A DNA stretch of 64,000 bases from an uncultured Myxococcales bacterium (GTDB taxonomy: Bacteria; Myxococcota; Kuafuiibacteriia; Kuafuiibacteriales; Kuafuiibacteriaceae), in NCBI GenBank assembly GCA_964519665.1, contig CAZFIV010000020.1:9268-73267 (forward strand). Reading direction: 5' to 3'. The stretch's first letter is position 1; each line of letters begins with the position of its first letter. The notes below the pieces were generated by a model. That model was not told where the DNA came from. It worked only from the letters and a program-made list of their open reading frames with translations, and did not search any database. Both the position numbers and the translations under genes were made by a program. This document shows positions 1 through 61,407 of this stretch, piece after piece.

Positions 1-564
1 ACGGGGCGGAGGCTGGGGCGGCGGAACGGCGTCGTTCAACGAAGGTGCCCGAGGGCGCGCTGGGGCCTCGCTTGCCGCACGCGCCGACGCGCCTCCCTGC
101 GTTGATGCGGTCCGCCGGGTAGTGCTCGCCTGGCTGCGAGCGGGCTGGGGGTTGGCCTGGCTGCGAGCGGGCTGGGGGCCGGCTTGGCTGCGAGCGGGCT
201 GGGGGTTGGCCTGGCTGCGTGCGGGCTGGCTGCGAGCGGGCTGGGGGTTGGCCTGGCTGCGAGCGGGCTGGGGGTTGGCCTGGCTGCGTGCGGGCTGAGG
301 GCGGGCCTGGCCGCCGGGACCTGGACTGGGGGCGGGATTGGGCGCCAGATCAGGGGCGGCGCGAGGGTCGGCGCGGCGCGGAGGGGCGGCGCGGCGCGGA
401 GATGCGGCGCGGCGAGGCGGCAATCGAGGCGCTCCGGCCGGGTCCGCCGGCCCACGCCGTGGTCGAGGATGGGGTGTCCCGGGGTCGGGCGCCAAGGCAT
501 GACCGCAGTGGGTGCATTGGGTCGCGTGGCCAGGATTCGGTGTGCCGCACTCCGGACAGAACAT
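1..564 (-). CDS. Zinc-ribbon (CxxC...CxxC) protein with Pro/Gln/Arg-rich repeat linker; partial, runs off the left edge
   Basis: Manual translation from ATG at 564: MFCPECGTPNPGHATQCTHCGHAL...(QPARSQANP)n...; no stop seen down to base 1. Absent from the ORF track because it is open at the edge. Confidence 0.8.
   Translation of the reverse strand, partial: MFCPECGTPNPGHATQCTHCGHALAPDPGTPHPRPRRGPADPAGAPRLPPRRAASPRRAAPPRRADPRAAPDLAPNPAPSPGPGGQARPQPARSQANPQPARSQANPQPARSQPARSQANPQPARSQAGPQPARSQANPQPARSQASTTRRTASTQGGASARAASEAPARPRAPSLNDAVPPPQPPPR
130..306. repeat. Intragenic tandem repeat, 27-bp unit CTGGCTGCGAGCGGGCTGGGGGTTGGC (about 6 copies plus one 15-bp partial)
   Basis: Units read directly at 130, 157, 184, 211 (partial), 226, 253 and 280; they encode QPARSQANP on the minus strand. 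Confidence 0.9.
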
Positions 565-738
565 GGTGGTCGGCCGCATCCTACGTAAAGCCTCGCGACC
601 CGTCGACCGTTGGTGGTCAGGCCGACACGGCATCGAACGGGCGGCGAGACACCTTCGGGCCCCGGGGTCTACCGGCCCGGTCGAACTGCGTCGACCGGTT
701 CAGTTCTCTAGTGGTCACGCGCGTGTTATCCGCGGTCA

Positions 739-49929: not shown

Positions 49930-52836
49930 TCACAGGCTGAACCAGGCGATCATGAGGAGGAACACGATCAGCAGCGATAAGCCGAACGCGATAAGAACGG
50001 TCATGAGCAGACTCGGTCCGGACCGAGCGGGCGCCGCGGGCATCCTGTCGATCGAAAATGGTCCGCTGCCGTAGGGAGCGGCTTGCACCTGCCTCGACGC
50101 CGTGGGGGACGACGACACGTCAGAGGCCGGCGCCGGAAGGACTTTGGTGGGTGGCGCGGAGGTTCGTACCGCGCCGGGCTCGGACGTCTCCGGCGCCCCG
50201 GGGGTTCGTGCGGTCAGGGGCGACGGTAGCTCCCCCAACTTGGGGCCAGCGGCACTCCCTGCGGACGGCGGAGACTCGGTTGCCGTCGGCGCGAGGTACT
50301 GAAAATGGTACCGAGCTAGAGCCGGCGGCGGGAGATTGCGGTGAGGGTCTTGGGGCAGCGGTTGCTCCCAGAAGACGGGTCGAATGTCGTGCCCCAGCGA
50401 CAAGGCGTATTGCACTTCTTCGAGCACGTACACGGACGTCATCGCATTGCTCGACCAGAACAGCTGAAACACGTCGGCGGTGCGGATCATCTCTTCCAGA
50501 CGGTCAGTCCATACTTCGCCCGCCCGCAGGTCGAGTAGATCGATGAGGTATCGGTCGCCCAGTCCGCGGGCGAAGGCTTCGAAGGAGCGAACGATCGGGA
50601 GGTCTCGGCGGCTGTATGACGCGAAGATTCTCCGGTATCGGCGACCGTCTTCGGGAACGATCGGGGAAGACGGCGTCACGGAGTCATGCGGCTCGACCCG
50701 CAAGGCCAAAGGCACATCCCCGACCAGCACCGCACCATAGAACACGCTGATCAAGCCGCGGTGAATCTGACCGGGGTTGTCCGATCGGGCCCGGAATCGG
50801 GTCAGATGCACGTCTTCGCTCCAAACGAAGGACGCGGAGGGCGGGTTGAAGGTCACGCCGTTGACGGCGGGCATGATCGTGAGCGTGCCATCCCGTGGGA
50901 TGGCCGATCGGGCATCGGTCGTCCCGGTTCGATAGTCGTGGACCGCTTCGCCGAGCGCCCCGGCGGCGAGCCGTTGCACCTGCGCCTGGGGATCCGGACT
51001 CTCAGACGGGGCCTCGGGACGCTTCTCAGACAGGTGAGCGAAAAAGAGGACGTCGGACCACTGCTTCGCGACCAGATGCTGGGGACGATAGACCGTGAAC
51101 TGTACATTCTCATCGAAAGCCGGCACGAACCCCGCTGGGCCATCCAGACGGATACGGTCGGCGGATGGGGGGGGCTCGCCCTCATCGAGGTCGATCTTTT
51201 CGTCTTGTCGCGCCTCGGGCTCCCTCGGCCGGTCGAGGTTGCTCCAGGGTACGTCGGCGTCGACGACCTCGGTGTCGACGAGCTTGGGGCCGTCGAACGG
51301 GTCGTCGGGCGGGATGACCCCTGCCGACCCGGGGTCGTTCTTGGTCCTCGTCAACTCCGTCAGCAGGGCTTGAGCCGGTCTATGCGTCGGGTCGTGCCGA
51401 AGAATCTCATTGAGCCGGCGGGTCGCGTGGTCGACCAGGCCGTATTGAGCGAAGGTAACAGCTTCGAGCCAATCCTTCTGCAACGAATCAGGAGGGGACG
51501 GCGGAGGCACCAAGTCCGCCGCGAGGCTGGTAGGGCCCCGACGCCCTCCGCGCCGAGGTAGCGGCCGTTCTTCCTGTTCGACGAAGCGGGCGTCGGGCCC
51601 AGCGGGTGGCTGGTCGGTGGCGAGTCGCTCGGACGGCTCCGGAAGCTCCGGTTCCAGGAAGTCTTCCTCGATCAGGTCGGGCGGAGCCGTGGGGATCGCA
51701 TCGGGTGCGTCGAAGAGCGGCGGGTGGTCGACGAGACCGTCGCCCGGCTGCGTTATGACGATCTGTTCGCCTTCGGTCTCGGAAGGGACTATAGGCGGGA
51801 CAACGACCGTGTCCATGTCGAGATCGAGGGTCGACCCAGCCTCTTTCTGGGCGACCTCCGCCTGCGGAAGCGGGTCTTCGCGATAACCGGTAGGTCGTCG
51901 GCGTCGCCTGGGGATGAGGTCGGACGGTTCGCCGCCCGGCGAAGGGACGCTGCCGCGCAGCGGGACCGATCCCGAACCCGACGAGGTTGGGGGGCTCGCC
52001 CGGGGTCGACGATGGCGCTGGACACTCGCGTCGACCTGCTGAACGACGTCATCGATCGAGGGGCGCGCGTCCGGGTCGCGCCTGAGACACTGCTGCGCGA
52101 CGGACCGCAAACGCTCCCGCGGCGCGCCGAGATTTCGGGGCAGGATGTCGAGCGCCGCTTCGATGATCCGTCCGAATCCGAATACGTCGGCGGACGTCGT
52201 CGGAAAAGGCGCATCCTCACGGTCCATGAAGTCTCGGACTTCGGGAGCCCACGTCTGAGCCCGGGCGGCCCGGGTCAGGGCCCATCGATCACGGTCGGTT
52301 TGCAGGGTGGGAGCGACGAACAGGTCGAGCCCAGGTCGAAGCAGCGCGATAGAGCCCTCCACGCGGCGTAAGATTTGCGAGGGCCGTAGCCCTCCGTGGA
52401 GCAAGCCTTGCCCGTGAAGCGCATTCAGCGCTTCGAGGGCCGACAATAGCAGGTTGACCATCTCGGCTACGGACGGTTCGGCGTCTTGCGTCCAGCGGTC
52501 GTTAACCGACCAGCCGTCGATCCATGGTGCGACGAGGAAGGTGCCGCGGTTGTCGCGGCCGAGGGTGATCTTGCGGGGGCCCCATGCTTCCATCGTCCCA
52601 TCGGGGGAGAATTGGCCCCACTGCACCCATCGGCCGAGTGCCTCCTGCAGGACCTCTTGCTTAGGCCATCGGACGAACAGCTTGAGGAAGACTTCTTCAC
52701 TCTCTTTGTGATCGTGAGCCTGGTAGGCGGGCCCCAAGACGCGCCCCCGCTGCTGCGTGACCAGCGAGTATCGGTTCTGGACCAACGCTCCGATGTGCTC
52801 CTGGCCGAAGCGCACAGCGGACCAACTGTAGCCCAT
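49930..52836 (-). CDS. Multidomain protein: degenerate Ser/Thr kinase, Pro-rich linker, TPR-like hairpin, beta domain, TIR domain, C-terminal TM
   Basis: Kinase: VFLKLF, HGGLRPSQI, WAPE, ADVFGFG, CLRRDPDARP. TIR: IFASYSRRD...LFWSSNAMTSVYVLEEVQYAL. TM at the extreme C-terminus. Start approximate. Confidence 0.8.
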   Translation of the reverse strand: MGYSWSAVRFGQEHIGALVQNRYSLVTQQRGRVLGPAYQAHDHKESEEVFLKLFVRWPKQEVLQEALGRWVQWGQFSPDGTMEAWGPRKITLGRDNRGTFLVAPWIDGWSVNDRWTQDAEPSVAEMVNLLLSALEALNALHGQGLLHGGLRPSQILRRVEGSIALLRPGLDLFVAPTLQTDRDRWALTRAARAQTWAPEVRDFMDREDAPFPTTSADVFGFGRIIEAALDILPRNLGAPRERLRSVAQQCLRRDPDARPSIDDVVQQVDASVQRHRRPRASPPTSSGSGSVPLRGSVPSPGGEPSDLIPRRRRRPTGYREDPLPQAEVAQKEAGSTLDLDMDTVVVPPIVPSETEGEQIVITQPGDGLVDHPPLFDAPDAIPTAPPDLIEEDFLEPELPEPSERLATDQPPAGPDARFVEQEERPLPRRGGRRGPTSLAADLVPPPSPPDSLQKDWLEAVTFAQYGLVDHATRRLNEILRHDPTHRPAQALLTELTRTKNDPGSAGVIPPDDPFDGPKLVDTEVVDADVPWSNLDRPREPEARQDEKIDLDEGEPPPSADRIRLDGPAGFVPAFDENVQFTVYRPQHLVAKQWSDVLFFAHLSEKRPEAPSESPDPQAQVQRLAAGALGEAVHDYRTGTTDARSAIPRDGTLTIMPAVNGVTFNPPSASFVWSEDVHLTRFRARSDNPGQIHRGLISVFYGAVLVGDVPLALRVEPHDSVTPSSPIVPEDGRRYRRIFASYSRRDLPIVRSFEAFARGLGDRYLIDLLDLRAGEVWTDRLEEMIRTADVFQLFWSSNAMTSVYVLEEVQYALSLGHDIRPVFWEQPLPQDPHRNLPPPALARYHFQYLAPTATESPPSAGSAAGPKLGELPSPLTARTPGAPETSEPGAVRTSAPPTKVLPAPASDVSSSPTASRQVQAAPYGSGPFSIDRMPAAPARSGPSLLMTVLIAFGLSLLIVFLLMIAWFSL

Positions 52837-53044
52837 AACTCGACGGGGCAAAAAGACGATGCTGTGTCTTCCGAGGGCGCTTCTGCAAGCCGGCGTCATC
52901 GGACGGGGCGCGGTCGCGACGGATCCGGGAATCCTTAGCGTTCCCCGGATCCCCGACCGACCGCGGGTCTGGTAAGGCCTGCGATGGATCGTCGCGGACC
53001 GCCGAAGGCGAGACAACCCACCCGGTGAGGGGTACGGATAGGGC

Positions 53045-54418
53045 ATGGACGTCGCGCGTAACTTCCGGATCTACGTCTCGCTGGCCGCGATGGCCGCAGT
53101 CATGGTCGCGGTTTTCGTCCTGTCGGTCTGGCAACTCGGATTCTGGCGGCGTTCCGGCAATTGGACGATCGCCACCGGGCATCCCGAGGGGATGTATTTT
53201 GCCCTCGGCAATGAGCTTGAAGAGATGCTCGATGGCGCGATGCCCGACGACAGGTTCACCCTGCGGGTTTCGGCGGGAAGCGTCGAAAACATGCGGCTGA
53301 TCGCCACCGGCGAGGTGGACTTCGCGTTCGTACAAAGCGACACCCGTCCCAGCCGCAATGCCCGGTTGATCGCAACCCTCTACACCGAAGTCGTCCACAT
53401 CGCGGTGCGTGCCGATTTGGTCGAAAGCGGCCAAGTCACCCAGCTCGAAGACTTGCGCACCCTTGAGTCCGTCTCGTTAGGGCCCGAAGGCAGCGGCACC
53501 CAACGGGCTGCCGAAAAGCTCCTGCAGCACTTCGAGATCGAAGTGCGCCCGGAGTGGAAACCGACCGATCCATCCCGGCTCCATCAAGCGTTTCTTCAGC
53601 GCCGGCTCGAGGCGGCCTTCGTTTTGGTCGGGCCGGGCACTGAATTCGGGCGAAAACTCTTCTCGGGGGGGGATGTCGAGCTGCTTTCGCTTGGCGCGGG
53701 CCTTCCGGGCGGTACCCCGGCCGATGCGTTCGCGATCCGGTTTCCGGCCTTCAAGCCGGCGCTGCTGCCGGCGCGACTTTATGGGCAGTACCCGCCGGAG
53801 GCGAAGCAGACCATCGGCGTAACGGCCGCGCTGGTCGCGTCGGAGGTCGTGAGCGACGAGGTTGTTCGCCGGGTGACCGAGCTGCTCTTCGAGCGCCGCA
53901 ACGAGCTGCAGCGCCGGGATGTCCCTCCTCAGCCCCACGGGGGTCACATGGCCGAATTCCCGCTCGATTTCGGGACCGCCGACGAGGTGCAGCGACATGT
54001 CATACCGCTTCATCCGGGGGCGGACTCCTTCTACCGGCGCGAACGTCCGTCGTTTTTGGTGACCTACGCCGAGGTCATCAGTCTCGGCATCACCCTGCTC
54101 GTCGGCTTGTATTCGATCGCTTCGCTCTTTCTCCGGTGGCGGGCCGACCTGAAGAAAGAGCGAATCGATGACTACTACGCCGAGATTCGAAGTGTTGCCG
54201 AGCTGCCGACGAGCCAGCGGCTCAAGGCGCTGTACCGGATCAGAGAGCGTGCGTTCGACGAGCTCATGGCCGAGCGACTCGCCGCCAACGACGCATTCGT
54301 GATCTTCCACGACTACGTCATGAGCGAAGTGGGTCGGACGGAGCGGGAGGCGGAAGCCGTGCGGCGCCGTCGGAAGTCGACTAAGGCTCGTCGTCGGGTC
54401 GCTTCCGAACGCGAATGA
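53045..54418 (+). CDS. TAXI-family TRAP solute-binding protein with C-terminal TM and cytoplasmic tail
   Basis: IATGHPEGMY, SAGSVENM, AFVQSD, LYTEVVH, GPEGSGT, IPLHPGA. Confidence 0.88.
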   Translation: MDVARNFRIYVSLAAMAAVMVAVFVLSVWQLGFWRRSGNWTIATGHPEGMYFALGNELEEMLDGAMPDDRFTLRVSAGSVENMRLIATGEVDFAFVQSDTRPSRNARLIATLYTEVVHIAVRADLVESGQVTQLEDLRTLESVSLGPEGSGTQRAAEKLLQHFEIEVRPEWKPTDPSRLHQAFLQRRLEAAFVLVGPGTEFGRKLFSGGDVELLSLGAGLPGGTPADAFAIRFPAFKPALLPARLYGQYPPEAKQTIGVTAALVASEVVSDEVVRRVTELLFERRNELQRRDVPPQPHGGHMAEFPLDFGTADEVQRHVIPLHPGADSFYRRERPSFLVTYAEVISLGITLLVGLYSIASLFLRWRADLKKERIDDYYAEIRSVAELPTSQRLKALYRIRERAFDELMAERLAANDAFVIFHDYVMSEVGRTEREAEAVRRRRKSTKARRRVASERE

Positions 54419-55028
54419 CGCCCTGGGTGGTCGCTCGTCGCTGCGACGGTGGCGGCGGACCGTGGGGCTCGTCGTTGCCCGGCCGCTCTTCCGAATTGGG
54501 CGGAAGAATCCCCGCATCGGTATCCGCGACGTCCAAGGTTGCAGCGGCGCACTTTCGGCACAAGGCCCGCGCTTCGTGCCGAGGAATGAAGTGCAGCGTG
54601 TCGTCGGCGCCGCATCGGACGCAGGTAATGGACCGCGCGACCCGGGTGCCGTGCTCGGTGCGGACCTTCGGGTGTTCTCGGCCTGCCTTTTCGCTCTGCT
54701 TCGCGGAGCCGTCCAAGAGTTCGTCGGCAGGACGGCTCGGGGTGCCGCTTCGATGGTGTCGGCGAAGCGGCGCGGTCTCGGCACCTCGAGAGGCGCGGCC
54801 GCGGGGCGCTCGAGCGCCCGGTCGCGGATCGTGTCCGTCGCGGGCCCCGGTAGAACCGCCTCGGTTTGATCCGCGCGCGTGTCGGGCGGAGCCCGCCTCC
54901 GCGCTCGATGGGCGCCCCCATTGATCGTCGGGTCGTGGGTCGACGCCCTGCGATGATGCCGAACCGGCCTTTCGAGGCTGCCGGCGCCCGGTGCCAGGGG
55001 ATGTTCCGCCGTTCGATTGTTCGGTCAC
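54381..55028 (-). CDS. Arg-rich disordered protein with a CxxC-x17-CxxC zinc ribbon
   Basis: CVRC-GADDTLHFIPRHEARAL-CRKC (exactly 17-residue spacer); GGAGG RBS before GTG at 55028. Confidence 0.7.
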   Translation of the reverse strand: MTEQSNGGTSPGTGRRQPRKAGSASSQGVDPRPDDQWGRPSSAEAGSARHARGSNRGGSTGARDGHDPRPGARAPRGRASRGAETAPLRRHHRSGTPSRPADELLDGSAKQSEKAGREHPKVRTEHGTRVARSITCVRCGADDTLHFIPRHEARALCRKCAAATLDVADTDAGILPPNSEERPGNDEPHGPPPPSQRRATTQGVIRVRKRPDDEP

Positions 55029-55088
55029 GTAGGTCCCTCCGAAGCCTTGGCATTTCTTCGTAGAAACACGCAGGCTCAAATGTTGCGC

Positions 55089-55105
55089 ATACACAGGTGT
55101 TCAGC
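55089..55105 (+). promoter_or_regulatory. Myxococcus-type LexA (SOS) box
   Basis: ATACACAGGTGTTCAGC matches CTRHAMRYBYGTTCAGS at 15/17 positions, ending 15 bp before the lexA start. Confidence 0.7.
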
Positions 55106-55120
55106 TAAGGTCCACCCGTC

Positions 55121-55858
55121 ATGCAGGGGCTCACTGGGCGACAGCGAGAGATTTTGGAGTTCATCACCAAGCGCATTGAGGAGCAGGGTTATCCGCCGAC
55201 CATTCGCGAGATTGGCGAGCACATGGGTATCAAATCCACGAACGGCGTGAATGATCATCTCAAGGCCCTCGAGCGCAAGGGCTTTCTGAAGCGCGAGGGG
55301 CTCAAATCTCGCGCTCTTCGCCCGGTGCAGGCGGAAGGCGGCAGCACCGGGCCAGCCGCCCGCATTGGCGGTTCGCTTGGCTCGGGCGCCGTTGATGTTG
55401 CCGGCTCCGAACCGGGGATCGAATCCAACGTGGTCAGCGCCGTTATTCCCGATCGTGGCGCCACCATCGCCGTTCCGGTGCTCGGGCGCGTCGCGGCGGG
55501 CGCTCCTATTCTCGCCGACGAGCACCCCGAAGCAACGGTGCATATCGACAGCTTCTTCCTCGGCGGCAAGAGCGGAGAGAAGATTTTCGCGCTCCGAGTG
55601 ACCGGCGACTCAATGATCGAGGCCGGGATCCTCGACGGCGACTATATCTTCGTTCGCAAACAGCTGGAGGCTCGGCGCAGTGACATCGTGGTCGCGATGA
55701 TCGACGGTGAGGCGACGGTGAAGCGGTTCGAGCCCAAAGGCGACGTCATCCACTTTGTGCCCGAGAACTCGTCGATGGATCCGATCGTCGTGCGCCGTTC
55801 TGACTTCCGAAACACGTGTATTCTGGGCGTTGTCGTGGGCGTCTATCGAAACGTCTGA
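55121..55858 (+). CDS. lexA: SOS repressor LexA
   Basis: [19 protein letters not shown] cleavage site (VAAGAP), Ser in GDSM, Lys in TVKR; extended G/S/A linker. Confidence 0.96.
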
Positions 55859-55867
55859 GCGTGGGGG

Positions 55868-57457
55868 TCAATCTAGCTTGCGGGCTCTGAGCCCACCGAC
55901 CACGCCGCCCATCGGGGTCAGGGGCGTGCCGTTCGTCGACGGCCGAAGGGCCCGGATGACAGGTTCTCTCCACGACAGGCCGGTATCGATCGGGTTCCGA
56001 TCCATGGACTGAAAGGTGAAGCCGTCTCCGCCGGTGTACATGAAGTCGATGATCAGCACCTCGTAGACCTTGCGGTCGGCGATCGGCTCGCCGTCCATAT
56101 CGAAGACTTCCACGACTGTTCGGGCCTTGCCGGGCCCTTCGGACTGTCGGTAGGCCCAAGTCATGCCCCCCACGACCGGCTTATCGATCGCGAGTTGGCT
56201 TCGGATCTGAGCCCCGGTGAGCTTGACGCGTTGGATGTTGTTTTCGAATGGCATCGCGCTCAGCAGATCGCTCATCGTGACCGGGCCCGACTCGATGCTC
56301 TGGCGGAGACCACCGTGGTTCAGCATCGCGAAGTCGGCTTCCGGCATCGCTTGCAACCAGCTGTCGACAACAAAATGGCCCAACGGGCTCTCGCCGAACG
56401 TACCGGTGGGCAGAGGGACGTCGAGGCGGCCGATGCGCTCCGACGTCGTCGATTCTGCGTGGGCCATTGCGCGCTCGACCACTGCCCGTACCGCTTCGGG
56501 GACGGGATATGGTGGTGCGCCGACTTCGCCGGTAACGTCGACGGTCTGATCGACGACCCGAAGAACCTGACGGGTGCGGATGTCGAATTCGATATCAAAC
56601 CGGGTGTAGCTTCGGCCGAACGGTCCTGGATTCACGATCTTGGTTCTTCGAACCACGGCCCGCCCTTTGCGGTGGTTTTGACCGGCGACCACGACGTCGA
56701 CGTCGAGGTCGGTGTTTTTTTCAAAGAGCTCAACGCCGGCCTCGACCTCATCGTGAAGAAGAACGACGACCACCTCGGCTCCGGCTTTGCGGACCTCGGG
56801 CAATTCGCGCCGCAGGGTCGCCGCGTACTCTCGAAACTCGAGGTCGGCGACGTTCTTGGCCATCGTCGTCTGCGGCGTGCCGATATAGCACAAGCCCAAG
56901 ATCCCCACCGCCACGCCGTTTCGTTCGACGATCGTCCACGGGCGCACGTAACTGGGGCGGTCGTCGGTTCCGGCGCGATAGATATTGGCGCCGAGAAACG
57001 GGAACCGTGCCTGTTCGATTCGGGCTTGGAGGCTCTCCTGCCCGAAGTCGAATTCGTGATTGGCGACGTTCACCGCCGAGAAACTCAGGAGGTTGTAGAT
57101 CTCGACGACCGGTGCGCCTTTCAACAGGGTGGCGGCGGTCTGCCCAGTCCACATATCGCCGTTGTCCACGAACACCGCGTTGTCGCCGGAGAGTTTCTCT
57201 CGGTGCTCGAGCATGGCCGCGAGGTTTCCGATGCCCCCGTAGTACTGCGGAGATCGGCGCGGCTGCAGGGGGGCGAGCCAGCCGTGGAAGTCGGTCAGTG
57301 CGATGACCGGGATAACGACGGTGTGACTCCGCGACTCGACCGGAGCGCTCGTCGCGCCCCCCAACCTATGCGTCGACGGCCCACAGCCCCCTGCTAGCAG
57401 CATGAAGATGATCGAGAGGGTCGACGCACAAGTGACCCGCCAACGACGAAGCGGCAT
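55868..57457 (-). CDS. Bifunctional metallophosphatase/5'-nucleotidase lipoprotein
   Basis: Lipobox AGGC, TDFHG, DNGD, NHEFD, NHGGLR, MPFEN, GGDGF. Confidence 0.92.
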   Translation of the reverse strand: MPLRRWRVTCASTLSIIFMLLAGGCGPSTHRLGGATSAPVESRSHTVVIPVIALTDFHGWLAPLQPRRSPQYYGGIGNLAAMLEHREKLSGDNAVFVDNGDMWTGQTAATLLKGAPVVEIYNLLSFSAVNVANHEFDFGQESLQARIEQARFPFLGANIYRAGTDDRPSYVRPWTIVERNGVAVGILGLCYIGTPQTTMAKNVADLEFREYAATLRRELPEVRKAGAEVVVVLLHDEVEAGVELFEKNTDLDVDVVVAGQNHRKGRAVVRRTKIVNPGPFGRSYTRFDIEFDIRTRQVLRVVDQTVDVTGEVGAPPYPVPEAVRAVVERAMAHAESTTSERIGRLDVPLPTGTFGESPLGHFVVDSWLQAMPEADFAMLNHGGLRQSIESGPVTMSDLLSAMPFENNIQRVKLTGAQIRSQLAIDKPVVGGMTWAYRQSEGPGKARTVVEVFDMDGEPIADRKVYEVLIIDFMYTGGDGFTFQSMDRNPIDTGLSWREPVIRALRPSTNGTPLTPMGGVVGGLRARKLD

Positions 57458-57510
57458 GAAGACGGGCAATAGTCTTTGCGCTTGGACAGATCAATGCTTA
57501 GTGGCCTTCA

Positions 57511-58446
57511 GTGGAATACTACTTCGCGCGTTACGGCGATCTCGAGCTGCACCGCCGGATGGTTGCCGACCGATGGCGGACCGAGGCGTTTGCTCGGGCC
57601 CTGCGCGGTGCGGTCCGGCCGGGTGACCATGTTCTCGACGTGGGGACCGGAACGGGCATCCTCGCCATGCTCGCGGCCCAGGCCGGGGCTGAGAAGGTCT
57701 TCGCGGTCGAGCAGTCGCCGATCGCCCAAACGGCGGCGAATCTCGTGAAGGCAAACGGCCTCCAGGATCGTGTCAAGGTGCTCCGAGGTCCTGCGTCCGA
57801 GGTCGATCTCGACGAACCGGTTGACGTATTGGTCAGCGAATGGCTGGGCCACATGGCATTCGTCGAGAACATGCTGGATGACGTGCTGGCTGCTCGAGAT
57901 CGGAACCTGGCCTCGGATGGTCGGATGCTTCCCGTCGACGTCGACCTGAAGCTCGCCCCGATCGGCGACCCGGTCTTATTCCATCAGTTCGGACCGGGCT
58001 TTTGGCGGCGATCCATCGAGGGGCTGGACTTTTCTTCGCTCGAACGGCTCGAGCTCGAGCAAGGTCGAGCGTTGCAGACCCGGGTCGAGGCGTCGACGCT
58101 CCTCGCAGAGCCGGCGAGCCTGGTCCGCCTGGACCTCAAGACCTGCGAGCGCAACGATCCTTTCGGCACGGGCAAACTGACCTTCGAGATAATCCGCGAC
58201 GGCGTGGTCGATGGTTTCGCCGGATGGTTTTCGACGACGCTCGCGGAGAATGTCATTCTCGATACCGGGCCCCGGCAGCCCGAAACCCACTGGTCTCAAA
58301 CCTATTTTGCGTTCGAACCGTTTCCCGTGGATGCCGGTGAGGAGCTCGAAATCGAATTCGGACTGGCCCGAGATCCCGAAGAGCCGCGCCACTTGAAGGT
58401 GACCCTGCACGTCGAGGGCGACGGCCGGACTTATACCGTCGAGTGA
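57511..58446 (+). CDS. SAM-dependent methyltransferase resembling a type I protein arginine N-methyltransferase
   Basis: YFARY, HxxMxxDxxR, VLDVGTGTG, VFAVE, double-E loop SEWLGHMAFVENM, FWRRSIEGLDFS arm, THW loop. Confidence 0.85.
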   Translation: MEYYFARYGDLELHRRMVADRWRTEAFARALRGAVRPGDHVLDVGTGTGILAMLAAQAGAEKVFAVEQSPIAQTAANLVKANGLQDRVKVLRGPASEVDLDEPVDVLVSEWLGHMAFVENMLDDVLAARDRNLASDGRMLPVDVDLKLAPIGDPVLFHQFGPGFWRRSIEGLDFSSLERLELEQGRALQTRVEASTLLAEPASLVRLDLKTCERNDPFGTGKLTFEIIRDGVVDGFAGWFSTTLAENVILDTGPRQPETHWSQTYFAFEPFPVDAGEELEIEFGLARDPEEPRHLKVTLHVEGDGRTYTVE

Positions 58447-58483: not shown

Positions 58484-59914
58484 TCACTGAGCGGAGAGAT
58501 TCGCAACGAGGATCGTCATTCGTTGGACGGCGTTTCGGAACTCTTCCTCCCCGACCGGTCGCGGTCGGTCGGAACGCAGATCTTGGGGCGTGCGGGCCCA
58601 AGGAATGTATCCGAAGACCGGAACGCCGATCAGGCGCAGCGGCACGGCACCTTGGGGATGATCCGAGAGGATCGGCACGGTGACCGAGTCGTCGGTAGCT
58701 CGCGCGCCGCGTCGAATTCTGTCGAGCCAGCGGTTGGACGCGCCTGACGTGCTCAGCGGCGACGCAACCTTCACCGTAAAATGAACGTCGGGGTCGTCGA
58801 CCGCCTTCCGCAGCTCTCCAATGAACGAGCCGGGGGTGGAGTCTTCGAGAAGCGAGGCGCGAAGCAGAGCGCGGCTGCGATACGGGGAGGCGGTGGTCCG
58901 GGTACTCGTATCGCCCCGCAATCCCGCTTCGATGCGCAGGATCCGGACGTTGTCGAGGAACTGGGCGCCCAACCCGGGCCGGTCGATCAGTTCGGGGACC
59001 ACGAAGTACCTCACACCGATCCGCGACCCAAGAAGCAAGCGTTGCGGTATGCTCAAGCCTTCGGCGGATGCCCGGAGGGTGGCCCGATTGGTCGCGGTGA
59101 GGCGGGGTTGGCGGGGTCGATCGCGAATGGCGACCAACGCTTGGGCGAGACGCTCGCTGCTTGGCGGTCCTTGGCCGTCGCTTCGATTCACGGTGGCAAC
59201 CTGAATGACCGCCGTCGCTCGCTCGCCGACCGACACCGCCTGGACCCGTCGCCCGTCGCCGAACCAGTCGACCACGTCGCAACCTCCCCCGGTGAGGGCG
59301 ACGGTCGCGGTCGCGATCGCGGGAGCTGTCGCGATCAACGCGTCCAGGCTGTTCGCACCTAGATCTAGGGCATCAGGAAGCGCCACGAGGTGAACGTCCC
59401 GTTTTCGAGGGCCGCCGAGCTCGGCGAGGACGGCGAGGCTCGTCGCATGGAGTACTGCGAGGCCCTTGCCATCCGCGACCCCGGCGCCCCACATCCTCCC
59501 TTCGCGGATGGTCAGGCTTCGCGGCGGGGTCTCGCGGGGCCAAGCCGCCGGGTCGACGCTCGCCGTGTCGAGGTGCGATAACAATACAACCGGAGGCCCC
59601 TTCGCATCGACGGCCTCGACGCGTCCCCAAACGGCCCATCGGCCGTCGCCGATATTGATAAGCTCGGTCTGGACCGATTCTCGGCGCAGGAAAGCCTGCA
59701 GGACCTGGGCCGCGTCGCGGCCGGCCCCTCGGGGCTGGGTCGTGTCGATGGCTACCAGCCGCTGCAGCAGCTCCTCCGCCCGCGCGGTGAGAGCGGACCA
59801 GGAGATGTCCGTCAATACGAACGGCGCGGGATCGGGGCGAACAGGGCCGCTCGCACATCCGAGTAGCGTCGCCATGACGCCGGCCACCGCGGCCGGCAGA
59901 TGTCGCCTCCCCAT
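58484..59914 (-). CDS. M20/M25/M40-family metallohydrolase-like lipoprotein (possibly inactive)
   Basis: Lipobox LLGC, LLQRLVAIDT, LLSHLDT, GAGVADGKG; the canonical EE motif is replaced by DA. Confidence 0.78.
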   Translation of the reverse strand: MGRRHLPAAVAGVMATLLGCASGPVRPDPAPFVLTDISWSALTARAEELLQRLVAIDTTQPRGAGRDAAQVLQAFLRRESVQTELINIGDGRWAVWGRVEAVDAKGPPVVLLSHLDTASVDPAAWPRETPPRSLTIREGRMWGAGVADGKGLAVLHATSLAVLAELGGPRKRDVHLVALPDALDLGANSLDALIATAPAIATATVALTGGGCDVVDWFGDGRRVQAVSVGERATAVIQVATVNRSDGQGPPSSERLAQALVAIRDRPRQPRLTATNRATLRASAEGLSIPQRLLLGSRIGVRYFVVPELIDRPGLGAQFLDNVRILRIEAGLRGDTSTRTTASPYRSRALLRASLLEDSTPGSFIGELRKAVDDPDVHFTVKVASPLSTSGASNRWLDRIRRGARATDDSVTVPILSDHPQGAVPLRLIGVPVFGYIPWARTPQDLRSDRPRPVGEEEFRNAVQRMTILVANLSAQ

Positions 59915-59986
59915 CTTCACTCCGCGGGTATAAACCCGGCGCGCCACTGGACGCACCCGCTTGTGGTGGTGTACGCCGAATAACGC

Positions 59987-60496
59987 GTGGCCGGCCTGGA
60001 CCTTCCTGTCAAACTCCGCCGCGGACTCGGCAAGGGCAAAGTGGTGCCCGCCGAAGAGCTGACGCGACGACTGCTGCAGTTCGACGGCAACGGCGACGGA
60101 AACTTGAGTCGCGACGAGCTGACTAAGTTTTTCCTGCACCACCGCGTCGGCGGGCCGTGGTTCTGCGAGGTCGTGACCAAGACCCTGTGGGATATCGCGG
60201 AAGAGCGATGGTCGCAGCCGATCGAGAGTATCACCGCCCAGGCCCTCGGTCGGGTGATCAGTTACAGCATGGCCCGACCCGGGCGCCCGACCGCACGATA
60301 TGTGATCACGCCGGACGCCGTGCAGGGACTCGAAGAGAAGCGCGGCCTGGGCGAAGGAGGCCCGCGCCCCTCGGTTTCGCCGCCGCGGCGCCCCGTCGCC
60401 GACGCTTCGGGGCGCTCTGCGGTTCGCACGATGCTTCCGCCCCAAGGTCCTGGTCGGGCGGCACCACGCCGAGCGGGTCCGCGTCCGAGACGGTGA
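59987..60496 (+). CDS. EF-hand-containing protein with Arg/Pro-rich tail
   Basis: DGNGDGNLSRDE canonical 12-residue EF loop; stop overlaps the next GTG. Confidence 0.65.
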   Translation: MAGLDLPVKLRRGLGKGKVVPAEELTRRLLQFDGNGDGNLSRDELTKFFLHHRVGGPWFCEVVTKTLWDIAEERWSQPIESITAQALGRVISYSMARPGRPTARYVITPDAVQGLEEKRGLGEGGPRPSVSPPRRPVADASGRSAVRTMLPPQGPGRAAPRRAGPRPRR

Positions 60497-61407
60497 CCGA
60501 GTCCGGGCCGGGCAAGCCGGAAACCACGCTTCCGTCGGGGGCCCTCGGTTCCCGATACGATCGCGCGATCCACAGGGTATTGACCGCCGCTGGACGTGAG
60601 GTCTCGGTGCGTGAGATCCGCCAAGCCCTCAAGAACGGCCTCATAACGGTGGACGGCCGGCCGAAGGCCCCGGGGCGAACGGCCCGTGGGGGCGAGCGCG
60701 TGCAATGGGGAGCATTCGTGCCCCGCCGCGAAGCGGTTTTGCGGCCAGCGAGCGAATGGTTTCACGAGATTAGGGTCCTCGCCGACGAGGACGACCTCCT
60801 GGTGCTCGACAAGCCGTCCGGCCTGCCGACCCATCCGCTCCGGCCCGACGAAGACGTGACCCTCCTCAACGCGGCGATCGCGATCCGACCGGACGTCGGC
60901 CAGGCGGGTCCTCACCTCGAAGGAGGCTTGGTCCATCGCCTCGATACCGGCACGTCGGGCGTGGTGGTGTTCGCGACCTGCGTCGACGGTCGCGAGCGCT
61001 TGCGGGGCGACTTCGTCGCCCACCGCGTGATCAAGCGCTATTGGGCGCTGACGGTCCCGCCAACCTGGCAAACCCACCGAGCGGACGGCGCGATCGGAGG
61101 GACGGGCCAACGGGTTCGGGTCTTGCCTCCCGACGACCCCAATGGCTTGCCGGCAGAGACGTTGTTGACGGTACGAAAGGTCGATGGTGACCGGGCCTGG
61201 ATCTGGGCCGAGACGGTAACGGGTCGGCGGCATCAAGTTCGTGCCCATCTCAGTGCCCTGGGCGCACCGCTGTGGGGAGATGCGCTCTACGGAGGGCGGT
61301 CGGCGGCGCGGTTGGGGCTTCATGCGTCGGAGCTCGAGCTGCCGGACGGGCGGTGCTTTCGATCGCCCCTTCCCCCCGACCTGACCGACCAACTGGAGGC
61401 TCCATGA
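60493..61407 (+). CDS. RluA/RluD-family pseudouridine synthase with S4-like N-terminus
   Basis: DKPSGLPTHP, HRLDTGTSG, TGRRHQVRAH, GDALYG. Confidence 0.9.
   Translation: MTESGPGKPETTLPSGALGSRYDRAIHRVLTAAGREVSVREIRQALKNGLITVDGRPKAPGRTARGGERVQWGAFVPRREAVLRPASEWFHEIRVLADEDDLLVLDKPSGLPTHPLRPDEDVTLLNAAIAIRPDVGQAGPHLEGGLVHRLDTGTSGVVVFATCVDGRERLRGDFVAHRVIKRYWALTVPPTWQTHRADGAIGGTGQRVRVLPPDDPNGLPAETLLTVRKVDGDRAWIWAETVTGRRHQVRAHLSALGAPLWGDALYGGRSAARLGLHASELELPDGRCFRSPLPPDLTDQLEAP

Follow-up and report, generated by a model that had tools for sequence, protein, structure and literature searches.

A compact bacterial member of the protein arginine methyltransferase family with type I architecture, encoded near lexA in Myxococcota

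Whether bacteria possess a protein arginine methyltransferase (PRMT) of their own with the architecture of the eukaryotic type I enzymes is the question raised by an open reading frame (ORF) located in a 64,000-nucleotide stretch, hereafter the window, of contig CAZFIV010000020.1 (assembly GCA_964519665.1) from an uncultured Myxococcales bacterium. A preliminary description of this DNA had recognised in the ORF the motif set of a type I PRMT and had proposed an endogenous arginine-methylation system. From the analysis presented here, membership of the ORF product in the PRMT family, with the architecture of type I enzymes, is secure, and by its sequence the ORF specifies a complete, apparently catalytically intact type-I-like PRMT. 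As regards function, it is considered probable that the protein is a homodimeric S-adenosylmethionine (SAM)-dependent enzyme that carries out mono- and asymmetric dimethylation of arginine in the cell's own proteins.

The Pfam PRMT_C model (PF22528) matches residues 163-300 with 71.1 bits against a cut-off of 27, and a phmmer search against PDB sequences retrieved PRMT6 (E 3.5e-52, query residues 3-302) and PRMT3 (7.8e-50, query residues 4-310), followed by PRMT2 (1.5e-44), PRMT1 (about 1e-40) and CARM1 (about 1e-39), with PRMT7, PRMT9 and others far weaker and last among the matches. The AlphaFold2 model, obtained from a 39-row alignment comprising the query and 38 of 120 listed homologues, has a mean predicted local distance difference test score (pLDDT) of 93.9 and a predicted template modelling score of 0.89, and contains a Rossmann half, three short helices within residues 154-184 and strands over residues 188-310. 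When this model was compared with the PDB by Foldseek, the PRMT3 core 2fyt came first (TM 0.90/0.90, root-mean-square deviation 2.0 over 308 columns, 33% identity), with PRMT6, PRMT2, PRMT1 and CARM1 after it and identities to eukaryotic PRMTs of 33-36%. Therefore, the predicted structure does contain the beta-barrel of PRMTs. The PRMT core takes up residues 3-310 of the model and a reading of the N-terminal sequence reveals no hydrophobic stretch, in agreement with the earlier remarks that the ORF carries neither an additional domain nor a signal peptide.

A script check found every motif listed in the preliminary description at the residue given for it (Table 1), with the arm-like segment FWRRSIEGLDFS corresponding to residues 164-175 and GFAGWF to residues 235-240. 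The claimed PRMT1-like spacing likewise fits, as query residues 2-305 align with residues 33-339 of the 353-residue PRMT1 chain 1orh_A according to phmmer offsets; H14, M17, D20 and R23 are presumably the equivalents of PRMT1 H45, M48, D51 and R54, and M121 that of M155. The type I signature, consisting of YFARY at residues 4-8, M17 and M121, is present, and in the phmmer alignment E110/E119 and T259-H260-W261 fall on the double-E region and the THW of PRMT6, respectively. In PRMT1 and PRMT3 the double-E loop clamps the substrate guanidinium, the His of the PRMT THW loop pairs with D51 and R54 binds the SAM carboxylate (PRMT1 numbering), the acidic post-I residue serves as the ribose contact, and M48 together with M155 of PRMT1 goes with asymmetric dimethylation. 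Within the 50-row phylogenetic clade that holds the window protein, E110, E119 and M121 are each conserved in 50/50 rows, and Y8, M17, D20, R23, G45, G47, G49, T259, H260 and W261 each in 49/50, the sole miss being a gap. Position 67 is acidic in 49/50 rows (Asp in 41, Glu in 8), while the YFxxY motif shows Y4 in 43/50 and F5 in 35/50, with Leu at the latter site in 10/50. E110, E119, M121, M17, D20, R23, T259, H260 and W261 are also invariant in the 39-row alignment.

Prediction of the protein in two copies gave a score of 0.76 (runs 0.76, 0.76 and 0.80) as compared to 0.01 for the best of three controls, with likeness to solved PRMT dimers as a possible cause; the mark applied is reached by 20/30 solved same-chain pairs and 1/23 solved single chains. 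At least 98% of the contacts are shared between runs, the partner pLDDT is at least 92, and arm residues 159-188 of one copy are placed against residues 10-28, 48-57 and 74-82 of the other. This predicted arm-mediated, head-to-tail arrangement is that of the solved PRMT dimers, and since such dimers have already been solved, the result shows likeness and not binding.

A mechanism modelled on the eukaryotic enzymes can be proposed, in which the protein would function as a cytoplasmic, stand-alone arginine omega-N-methyltransferase with two subunits pairing head to tail via the arm. SAM would be bound under the N-terminal YFxxY helix, E110 and E119 would clamp the substrate arginine with the THW loop completing the guanidinium pocket, and the clamped arginine would be mono-methylated and then asymmetrically dimethylated. 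The substrates would be the cell's own proteins. The PRMT-family protein is acidic (pI 4.77, 52 Asp plus Glu versus 32 Lys plus Arg) and among the proteins encoded in the genome, ribosomal protein bS18 and a PHP_C protein, for example, have glycine/arginine-rich (GAR) tails, hence basic Arg/Gly-rich tails may be the most plausible targets.

The gene is endogenous and vertically maintained in bacteria. Its GC content of 63.6% compares with 62.9% for the window and its GC content at third codon positions is 76%, so that its composition is not anomalous, and the host genome (7.98 Mb, 240 contigs, 91.9% complete) contains a single copy. Stop-free orthologues with 48-75% identity are found in 19/19 genomes of the same family among 40 relatives, usually next to lexA, and this presence, the conserved synteny and the base composition bear out the earlier view of a gene native to the bacterium; in other families of the phylum distant homologues (28-44% identity) were found in only 3/21 genomes. 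With the PRMT_C model, 84/401 sampled genomes of the phylum gave a match at E<=0.001, 57 of them exceeding the cut-off, and 0/14 control genomes, E. coli among them, gave any. The stretch itself is contained in four DNA sequencing runs from a single study, and no RNA data set that contains it is listed.

Of 8000 entries scored in a word-indexed protein collection, 865 matched at E<=1e-5. The best 120 of these 865 are 51-100% identical to the query, mostly exactly 311 amino acids long, and carry organism labels of Myxococcota, Myxococcales or Deltaproteobacteria; their database names include '50S ribosomal protein L11 methyltransferase' (from NCBI pipelines), 'class I SAM-dependent methyltransferase' and 'SAM-dependent methyltransferase', and some are labelled 'type I protein arginine methyltransferase' by JGI. 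An exhaustive search of 50%-identity representatives yielded 13218 clusters at E<=0.001, 6753 at 1e-10 and 1247 at 1e-30. Using one peptide pattern derived from a 16-row alignment, 224 loci were confirmed in species-representative genomes, and the best 80 of these belong to Planctomycetota (26), Myxococcota (25), Verrucomicrobiota (14), Pseudomonadota (5), four other phyla with one each, and 6 unlabelled entries. Cultured carriers are Pelagicoccus mobilis KCTC 13126, two Pelagicoccus spp. and Verrucomicrobiae bacterium DG1235, as well as Ruegeria meonggei in a different clade.

Rather than an isolated curiosity, the locus is part of a large radiation in bacteria that comparative genomics has recognised, and transfers between Myxococcota, Planctomycetota and Verrucomicrobiota have also taken place within its clade. 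The statement that PRMTs are essentially eukaryotic is not supported, given that bacterial homologues are numerous, are partly labelled as PRMTs by JGI and form a radiation already noted by Aravind and colleagues. In Aravind et al. [quoted passage not shown] Lysine and arginine methylation is described as widespread in bacterial proteomes in a preprint (10.1101/2023.06.29.546327), and methyl-arginine is reported from bacterial proteomes in PMC8466066. As a member of a widespread family, the protein represents a real, testable lead rather than a one-off oddity.

The relation to the eukaryotic enzymes was addressed by two trees. In a FastTree phylogeny of 226/231 sequences (five having been dropped as shorter than 270 amino acids for representatives or 250 amino acids for locus proteins), the window protein lies in the above-mentioned 50-row clade, and a separate 28-row clade holds all sequences with eukaryotic names, support being 99* for both. 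The former comprises Myxococcota (16), Verrucomicrobiota (12), Planctomycetota (11), Pseudomonadota (2), Bdellovibrionota (1) and 8 unlabelled rows; 26/50 rows are 311 amino acids long and the others measure 309-315, except for four rows (388 twice, 275 and 255). The eukaryotic names in the 28-row clade are PRMT6-like (spider, cotton), PRMT3 (fish) and PRMT2-like (sponge), in addition to tick, snail and malawimonad entries, and the remaining rows are unnamed metagenome proteins, so that 'eukaryotic' applies to the whole clade only by extrapolation. Two of its members, P0156 (566 amino acids) and P0180 (358 amino acids), are Arg-rich and Lys-poor (Lys 1%, Arg 9-10%); if bacterial, they would be nearer to eukaryotic PRMTs than the window clade is.

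In an IQ-TREE analysis of 72 rows chosen after the first tree had been seen (LG+C20+F+G4 with posterior mean site frequencies and a short search), the window clade (14 rows) again stands apart from the eukaryote-containing clade (16 rows, 7 of them eukaryotic-named), each with support 99* on an otherwise poorly supported backbone, and the rows nearest to the eukaryotic clade are P0151 and P0192 (support 86). The window protein does not branch within the eukaryotic type I clade in either tree. A constraint that makes sisters of the eukaryotic and window clades, a group named after the tree had been seen, costs 4.04 log-likelihood units with a p-value of 0.406 in the approximately unbiased test, and hence a sister relationship is not rejected by the data, nor is it demonstrated. 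Since the trees lack an outgroup (PRMT5/7/9) and are unrooted, neither the direction of a transfer nor a donor can be stated.

When compared with eukaryotic type I PRMT cores (PRMT3 1f3l/2fyt, PRMT6 and PRMT1), the window protein has the same domain order on a core of about 310 amino acids and shares YFxxY, motif I, post-I, the double-E with trailing Met, THW, the barrel and the arm. It differs in forming a bacterial clade of its own that is not nested among the paralogues, in its limited identity to them and in that the H45 equivalent is Gln in most members of the clade. N-terminal targeting modules are known in PRMT3 (a zinc finger) and PRMT2 (SH3), and the window protein contains no such module. 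Other bacterial PRMT-like clades have the same PRMT_C fold and come from overlapping phyla (Myxococcota, Planctomycetota, Pseudomonadota and Acidobacteriota); however, many of their members are 380-440 amino acids long, with an N-terminal extension of about 70-110 residues (P0127, P0130-P0133, P0136-P0139, P0143-P0146, P0151, P0162 and others), as compared to the compact window clade of 309-315 amino acids, and by a crude regular expression most lack a YFxxY-like motif and some lack THW. No Pfam match at E<=0.001 was obtained for this extension in 10/10 proteins. From strings like 'LDLLALCDG.R...EIA' one might guess at a PqqD/RRE-like peptide-binding winged-helix domain.

As for substrates, the three nearby ORFs that had been proposed as Arg/Gly-rich candidates, namely the Zn-ribbon ORF, the weak EF-hand ORF and the ORF at the start of the window (Table 1), contain only 1, 0 and 0 RGG-like motifs, respectively; their composition is Arg/Pro/Ser-rich and not GAR, and they were discarded as substrates. 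Only the Zn-ribbon ORF recurs as a neighbour, solely inside its own family; its length of 124-273 amino acids across 9 family loci indicates that its Arg/Gly/Ser/Pro-rich N-terminal part may be over-called or lineage-specific. Behind its zinc ribbon, the ORF at the window start has Pro/Arg-rich sequence as well as some nine PQPARSQAN-like repeats in tandem.

A genome-wide scan for GAR regions (at least 4 RGG-like motifs in 40 amino acids) retained 40/8639 frame-filtered ORFs, many of which look wrong-frame, with bS18 and the PHP_C protein as the two convincing genes. The bS18 gene (PF01084; C24:10504-10830, + strand, of the same genome) has an N-terminal extension containing GRGGRGGGGRRG, and in many Myxococcota this extension is built from (RD)n repeats with RGG repeats after them, such as GRGGRGGRRGGKRK (loci L124-L152). 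The PHP_C protein (C50:22772-23797, + strand) carries a 126-residue GAR tail followed by DD[IV]GNR repeats, a feature kept in the family with tails of 105-194 residues, up to 28 RGG-like motifs and two or three terminal DD[IV]GNR repeats (loci L161-L179). Both the bS18 extension and the PHP_C tail are kept through the PRMT-bearing family. As enzyme-linked substrates they were nevertheless rejected, since co-occurrence with the PRMT failed in both directions, and the two GAR regions are reasonable test peptides, nothing more.

Several observations weigh against methylation of the cell's own proteins. RGG-extended bS18 is also encoded in three genomes from families in which PRMT_C was not found (G103, G034 and G115), and five PRMT-bearing genomes of other phyla lack the extension, namely those of Pelagicoccus, DG1235, two Planctomycetota and one of Bdellovibrionales. 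The PHP_C GAR tail also exists in genome G022, where no PRMT was found. H14, the H45 equivalent, represents a minority state in its own clade (Gln in 43/50, His in 6/50). A search for a TUDOR-family reader in the same genome returned none, with the control genomes equally silent, so that this search is uninformative. Among the ORFs of 53 loci, identified by a simple gene caller based on GC at third codon positions and clustered, no neighbour family is common to the Myxococcota, Planctomycetota and Verrucomicrobiota loci, and the sole family to recur across phyla is the PRMT itself, which was called in 48/53; as the caller missed the PRMT in the other 5/53, weak neighbours may have been missed too. 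In the literature searched, with subscription journals mostly outside it, no characterised bacterial type I PRMT and no biochemical data for any member of the family were encountered. Finally, in PMC3417536, which cites Aravind et al. 2011, the closest bacterial sisters of eukaryotic PRMTs are placed in secondary-metabolite operons, and this affiliation with peptide or secondary-metabolite pathways makes a non-protein acceptor possible.

Accordingly, the foremost alternative is that the methyl acceptor is a guanidino group either in free arginine or in a small or ribosomal peptide, in the manner of natural-product enzymes, and not in cellular proteins, which is regarded as unlikely. A precedent may be seen in SznE/StzE of streptozotocin biosynthesis, which is a bacterial enzyme too and which we take to adopt the PRMT fold. 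In many neighbouring clades of bacteria an additional domain, about 90 residues long, is present at the N-terminus, and no protein substrate is tied to the enzyme across phyla. According to reviews, SznE/StzE methylates the guanidino nitrogen of free L-arginine to produce N-omega-methyl-L-arginine. However, it acts inside a biosynthetic gene cluster, whereas the window gene has no such context: its neighbours are not biosynthetic genes, and the absence of a neighbour family shared by the three phyla counts here against this alternative as well. Being single-copy and present in 19/19 genomes of the family, the gene looks like a core gene, and its clade lacks the extra N-terminal domain and keeps the type I elements of the peptide groove, i.e. 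the YFxxY helix, the arm and the barrel.

A second alternative, judged very improbable, is that a PRMT-fold enzyme has drifted to another acceptor such as Lys, Gln, an N-terminus or a ribosomal protein site. It takes some encouragement from the name '50S ribosomal protein L11 methyltransferase' given to relatives by NCBI pipelines and from Pfam matches in the N-terminal half, where Methyltransf_25 and PrmA cover residues 29-137 and PrmA alone reaches 46.9 bits over residues 29-125. This is the Rossmann SAM-binding half in which PRMTs and PrmA are related, and it constitutes the source of the common misannotation. To our knowledge, PrmA lacks the PRMT_C barrel, the double-E loop and the THW loop. 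In the comparison of PRMT with PrmA by profile models and structure, PRMT_C passes and PRMT3 is the top fold, but no NCBIfam model scored above its cut-off, the prmA model TIGR00406 giving about 39.6-39.8 bits against 183.15. The same genome carries a separate true prmA (C15:78177-78743, 191.3 bits), which upholds the distinction drawn earlier, and the guanidinium-binding double-E and THW residues are kept in 49-50 of the 50 clade members. The origin of the ORF from eukaryotic DNA in a chimeric contig or from a very recent eukaryotic transfer, for which it can be said that the best named PDB matches are all eukaryotic, is hardly conceivable and for practical purposes ruled out by the native base composition, by the diverged orthologues in the same lexA-linked position, and by the separation of the window clade from the named PRMT2/PRMT3/PRMT6 clade in both trees with an identity to eukaryotic PRMTs that does not exceed the 33-36% range.

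The surroundings of the PRMT gene had been described as housekeeping and do include LexA, a 5'-nucleotidase, an M20 peptidase and a pseudouridine synthase by Pfam (Table 1). Of the 53 loci, 16 contain lexA, 11 the 5'-nucleotidase and 9 the Zn-ribbon ORF, each of these being confined to Myxococcota or the window's own family. In 5 loci (L046, L049, L027, L036 and L040) the two genes share a strand and a gap of 6-74 nucleotides separates the end of lexA from the PRMT start, and in 7/13 loci, the window and six others, the 5'-nucleotidase gene is situated between the two on the opposite strand; therefore the ancestral order was probably lexA followed by the PRMT gene, which suggests an ancestral lexA-PRMT pair split by an insertion. 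The operator-like element upstream of lexA is probably the LexA box of this Myxococcota family, and no element of this type was seen in front of the PRMT gene in the family loci inspected. The PRMT gene is instead preceded by an element of its own, recognisable in 8/13 family loci (the window, L044, L047, L049, L050, L027, L031 and L033), which looks promoter-like and suggests that the gene has its own promoter. A link of the PRMT to the SOS response is thus a lead and not a finding. It would be quite improbable for three things to hold jointly, namely that the 311-amino-acid clade is a working, endogenous PRMT forming asymmetric dimethylarginine, that it is the sister of all eukaryotic type I PRMTs, as the closest surviving relative of the donor, and that in this Myxococcota family the gene originally took second place in a lexA operon; if true, the lexA-operon ancestry would tie arginine methylation to the DNA-damage response.

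Table 1. Coordinates of the features discussed, in window positions
Feature	Position	Strand	Basis
PRMT-family ORF, stand-alone catalytic core, 311 amino acids, GTG start	57511..58446	+	family scan, phmmer, AlphaFold2, Foldseek
YFxxY (YFARY at residues 4-8), motif of the N-terminal helix in type I PRMTs	57520..57534	+	script
H14-x2-M17-x2-D20-x2-R23 helix	57550..57579	+	script
Motif I VLDVGTGTG, residues 41-49, SAM-binding glycine loop	57631..57657	+	script
Post-I VFAVE, residues 63-67, acidic residue 67	57697..57711	+	script
Motif II VDVLVSEW (residues 104-111) and double-E loop, E110/E119-N-M121	57820..57873	+	script
Dimerisation arm, helices 154-160, 162-166 and 176-184	57970..58074	+	AlphaFold2 secondary structure; interface residues 159-188 from predicted homodimer
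PRMT_C beta-barrel domain, residues 163-300	57997..58410	+	PF22528, AlphaFold2 strands, Foldseek
THW loop, T259-H260-W261	58285..58293	+	script
Upstream element AATAGTCTTTGC-N(about 10)-AGATCAA, before PRMT gene	57468..57494	+	by eye
Operator-like element ATGTTGCGCATACACAGGTGTTCAGCTA, pattern ATGTTGCG..ACA..GTTCAG, upstream of lexA	55080-55107		kept in 16/16 lexA upstream regions
lexA, co-oriented with PRMT gene	55121..55858	+	Peptidase_S24 and LexA_DNA_bind
5'-nucleotidase-like lipoprotein gene, between lexA and PRMT gene	55868..57469	-	5_nucleotid_C
Zn-ribbon ORF, CxxC...CxxC near C-terminus, divergent from lexA	54381-55094	-	no Pfam match
NMT1_3 solute-binding protein	53045-54418		Pfam
M20 peptidase, ORF probably over-extended	58484-60445	-	Pfam
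Weak EF-hand ORF, below cut-off	59987-60496	+	Pfam
Pseudouridine synthase	60157-61407		Pfam
ORF running off window end, N-terminal CPxCG...CxHCG zinc ribbon	1-633	-	sequence

The clade provides a clean test case, as it combines a minimal stand-alone type-I-like core, in which every catalytic residue is conserved, with cultured and non-pathogenic carriers such as Pelagicoccus mobilis KCTC 13126, and the absence of PRMT_C from the control genomes, including that of E. coli, makes E. coli suitable as a background-free expression host. Activity on proteins would establish endogenous arginine methylation of the PRMT type in bacteria, and would provide a prokaryotic reference point for the origin of type I product specificity and of dimer dependence. 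The assignment also corrects a recurrent misannotation as L11 methyltransferase. Given that the literature searched comprised few subscription journals, an earlier description of the exact 311-amino-acid clade is possible.

Elsewhere in the window, a 1038-amino-acid ORF at 49930-53046 (- strand) combines a weak protein-kinase-like region (a Pkinase match of 19.3 bits, which is below the cut-off) with a long Pro/Arg-rich linker, a TIR_2 match of 45.6 bits (residues 807-898) and a C-terminal hydrophobic segment. The product may be a protein of signalling or defence that contains a TIR domain.

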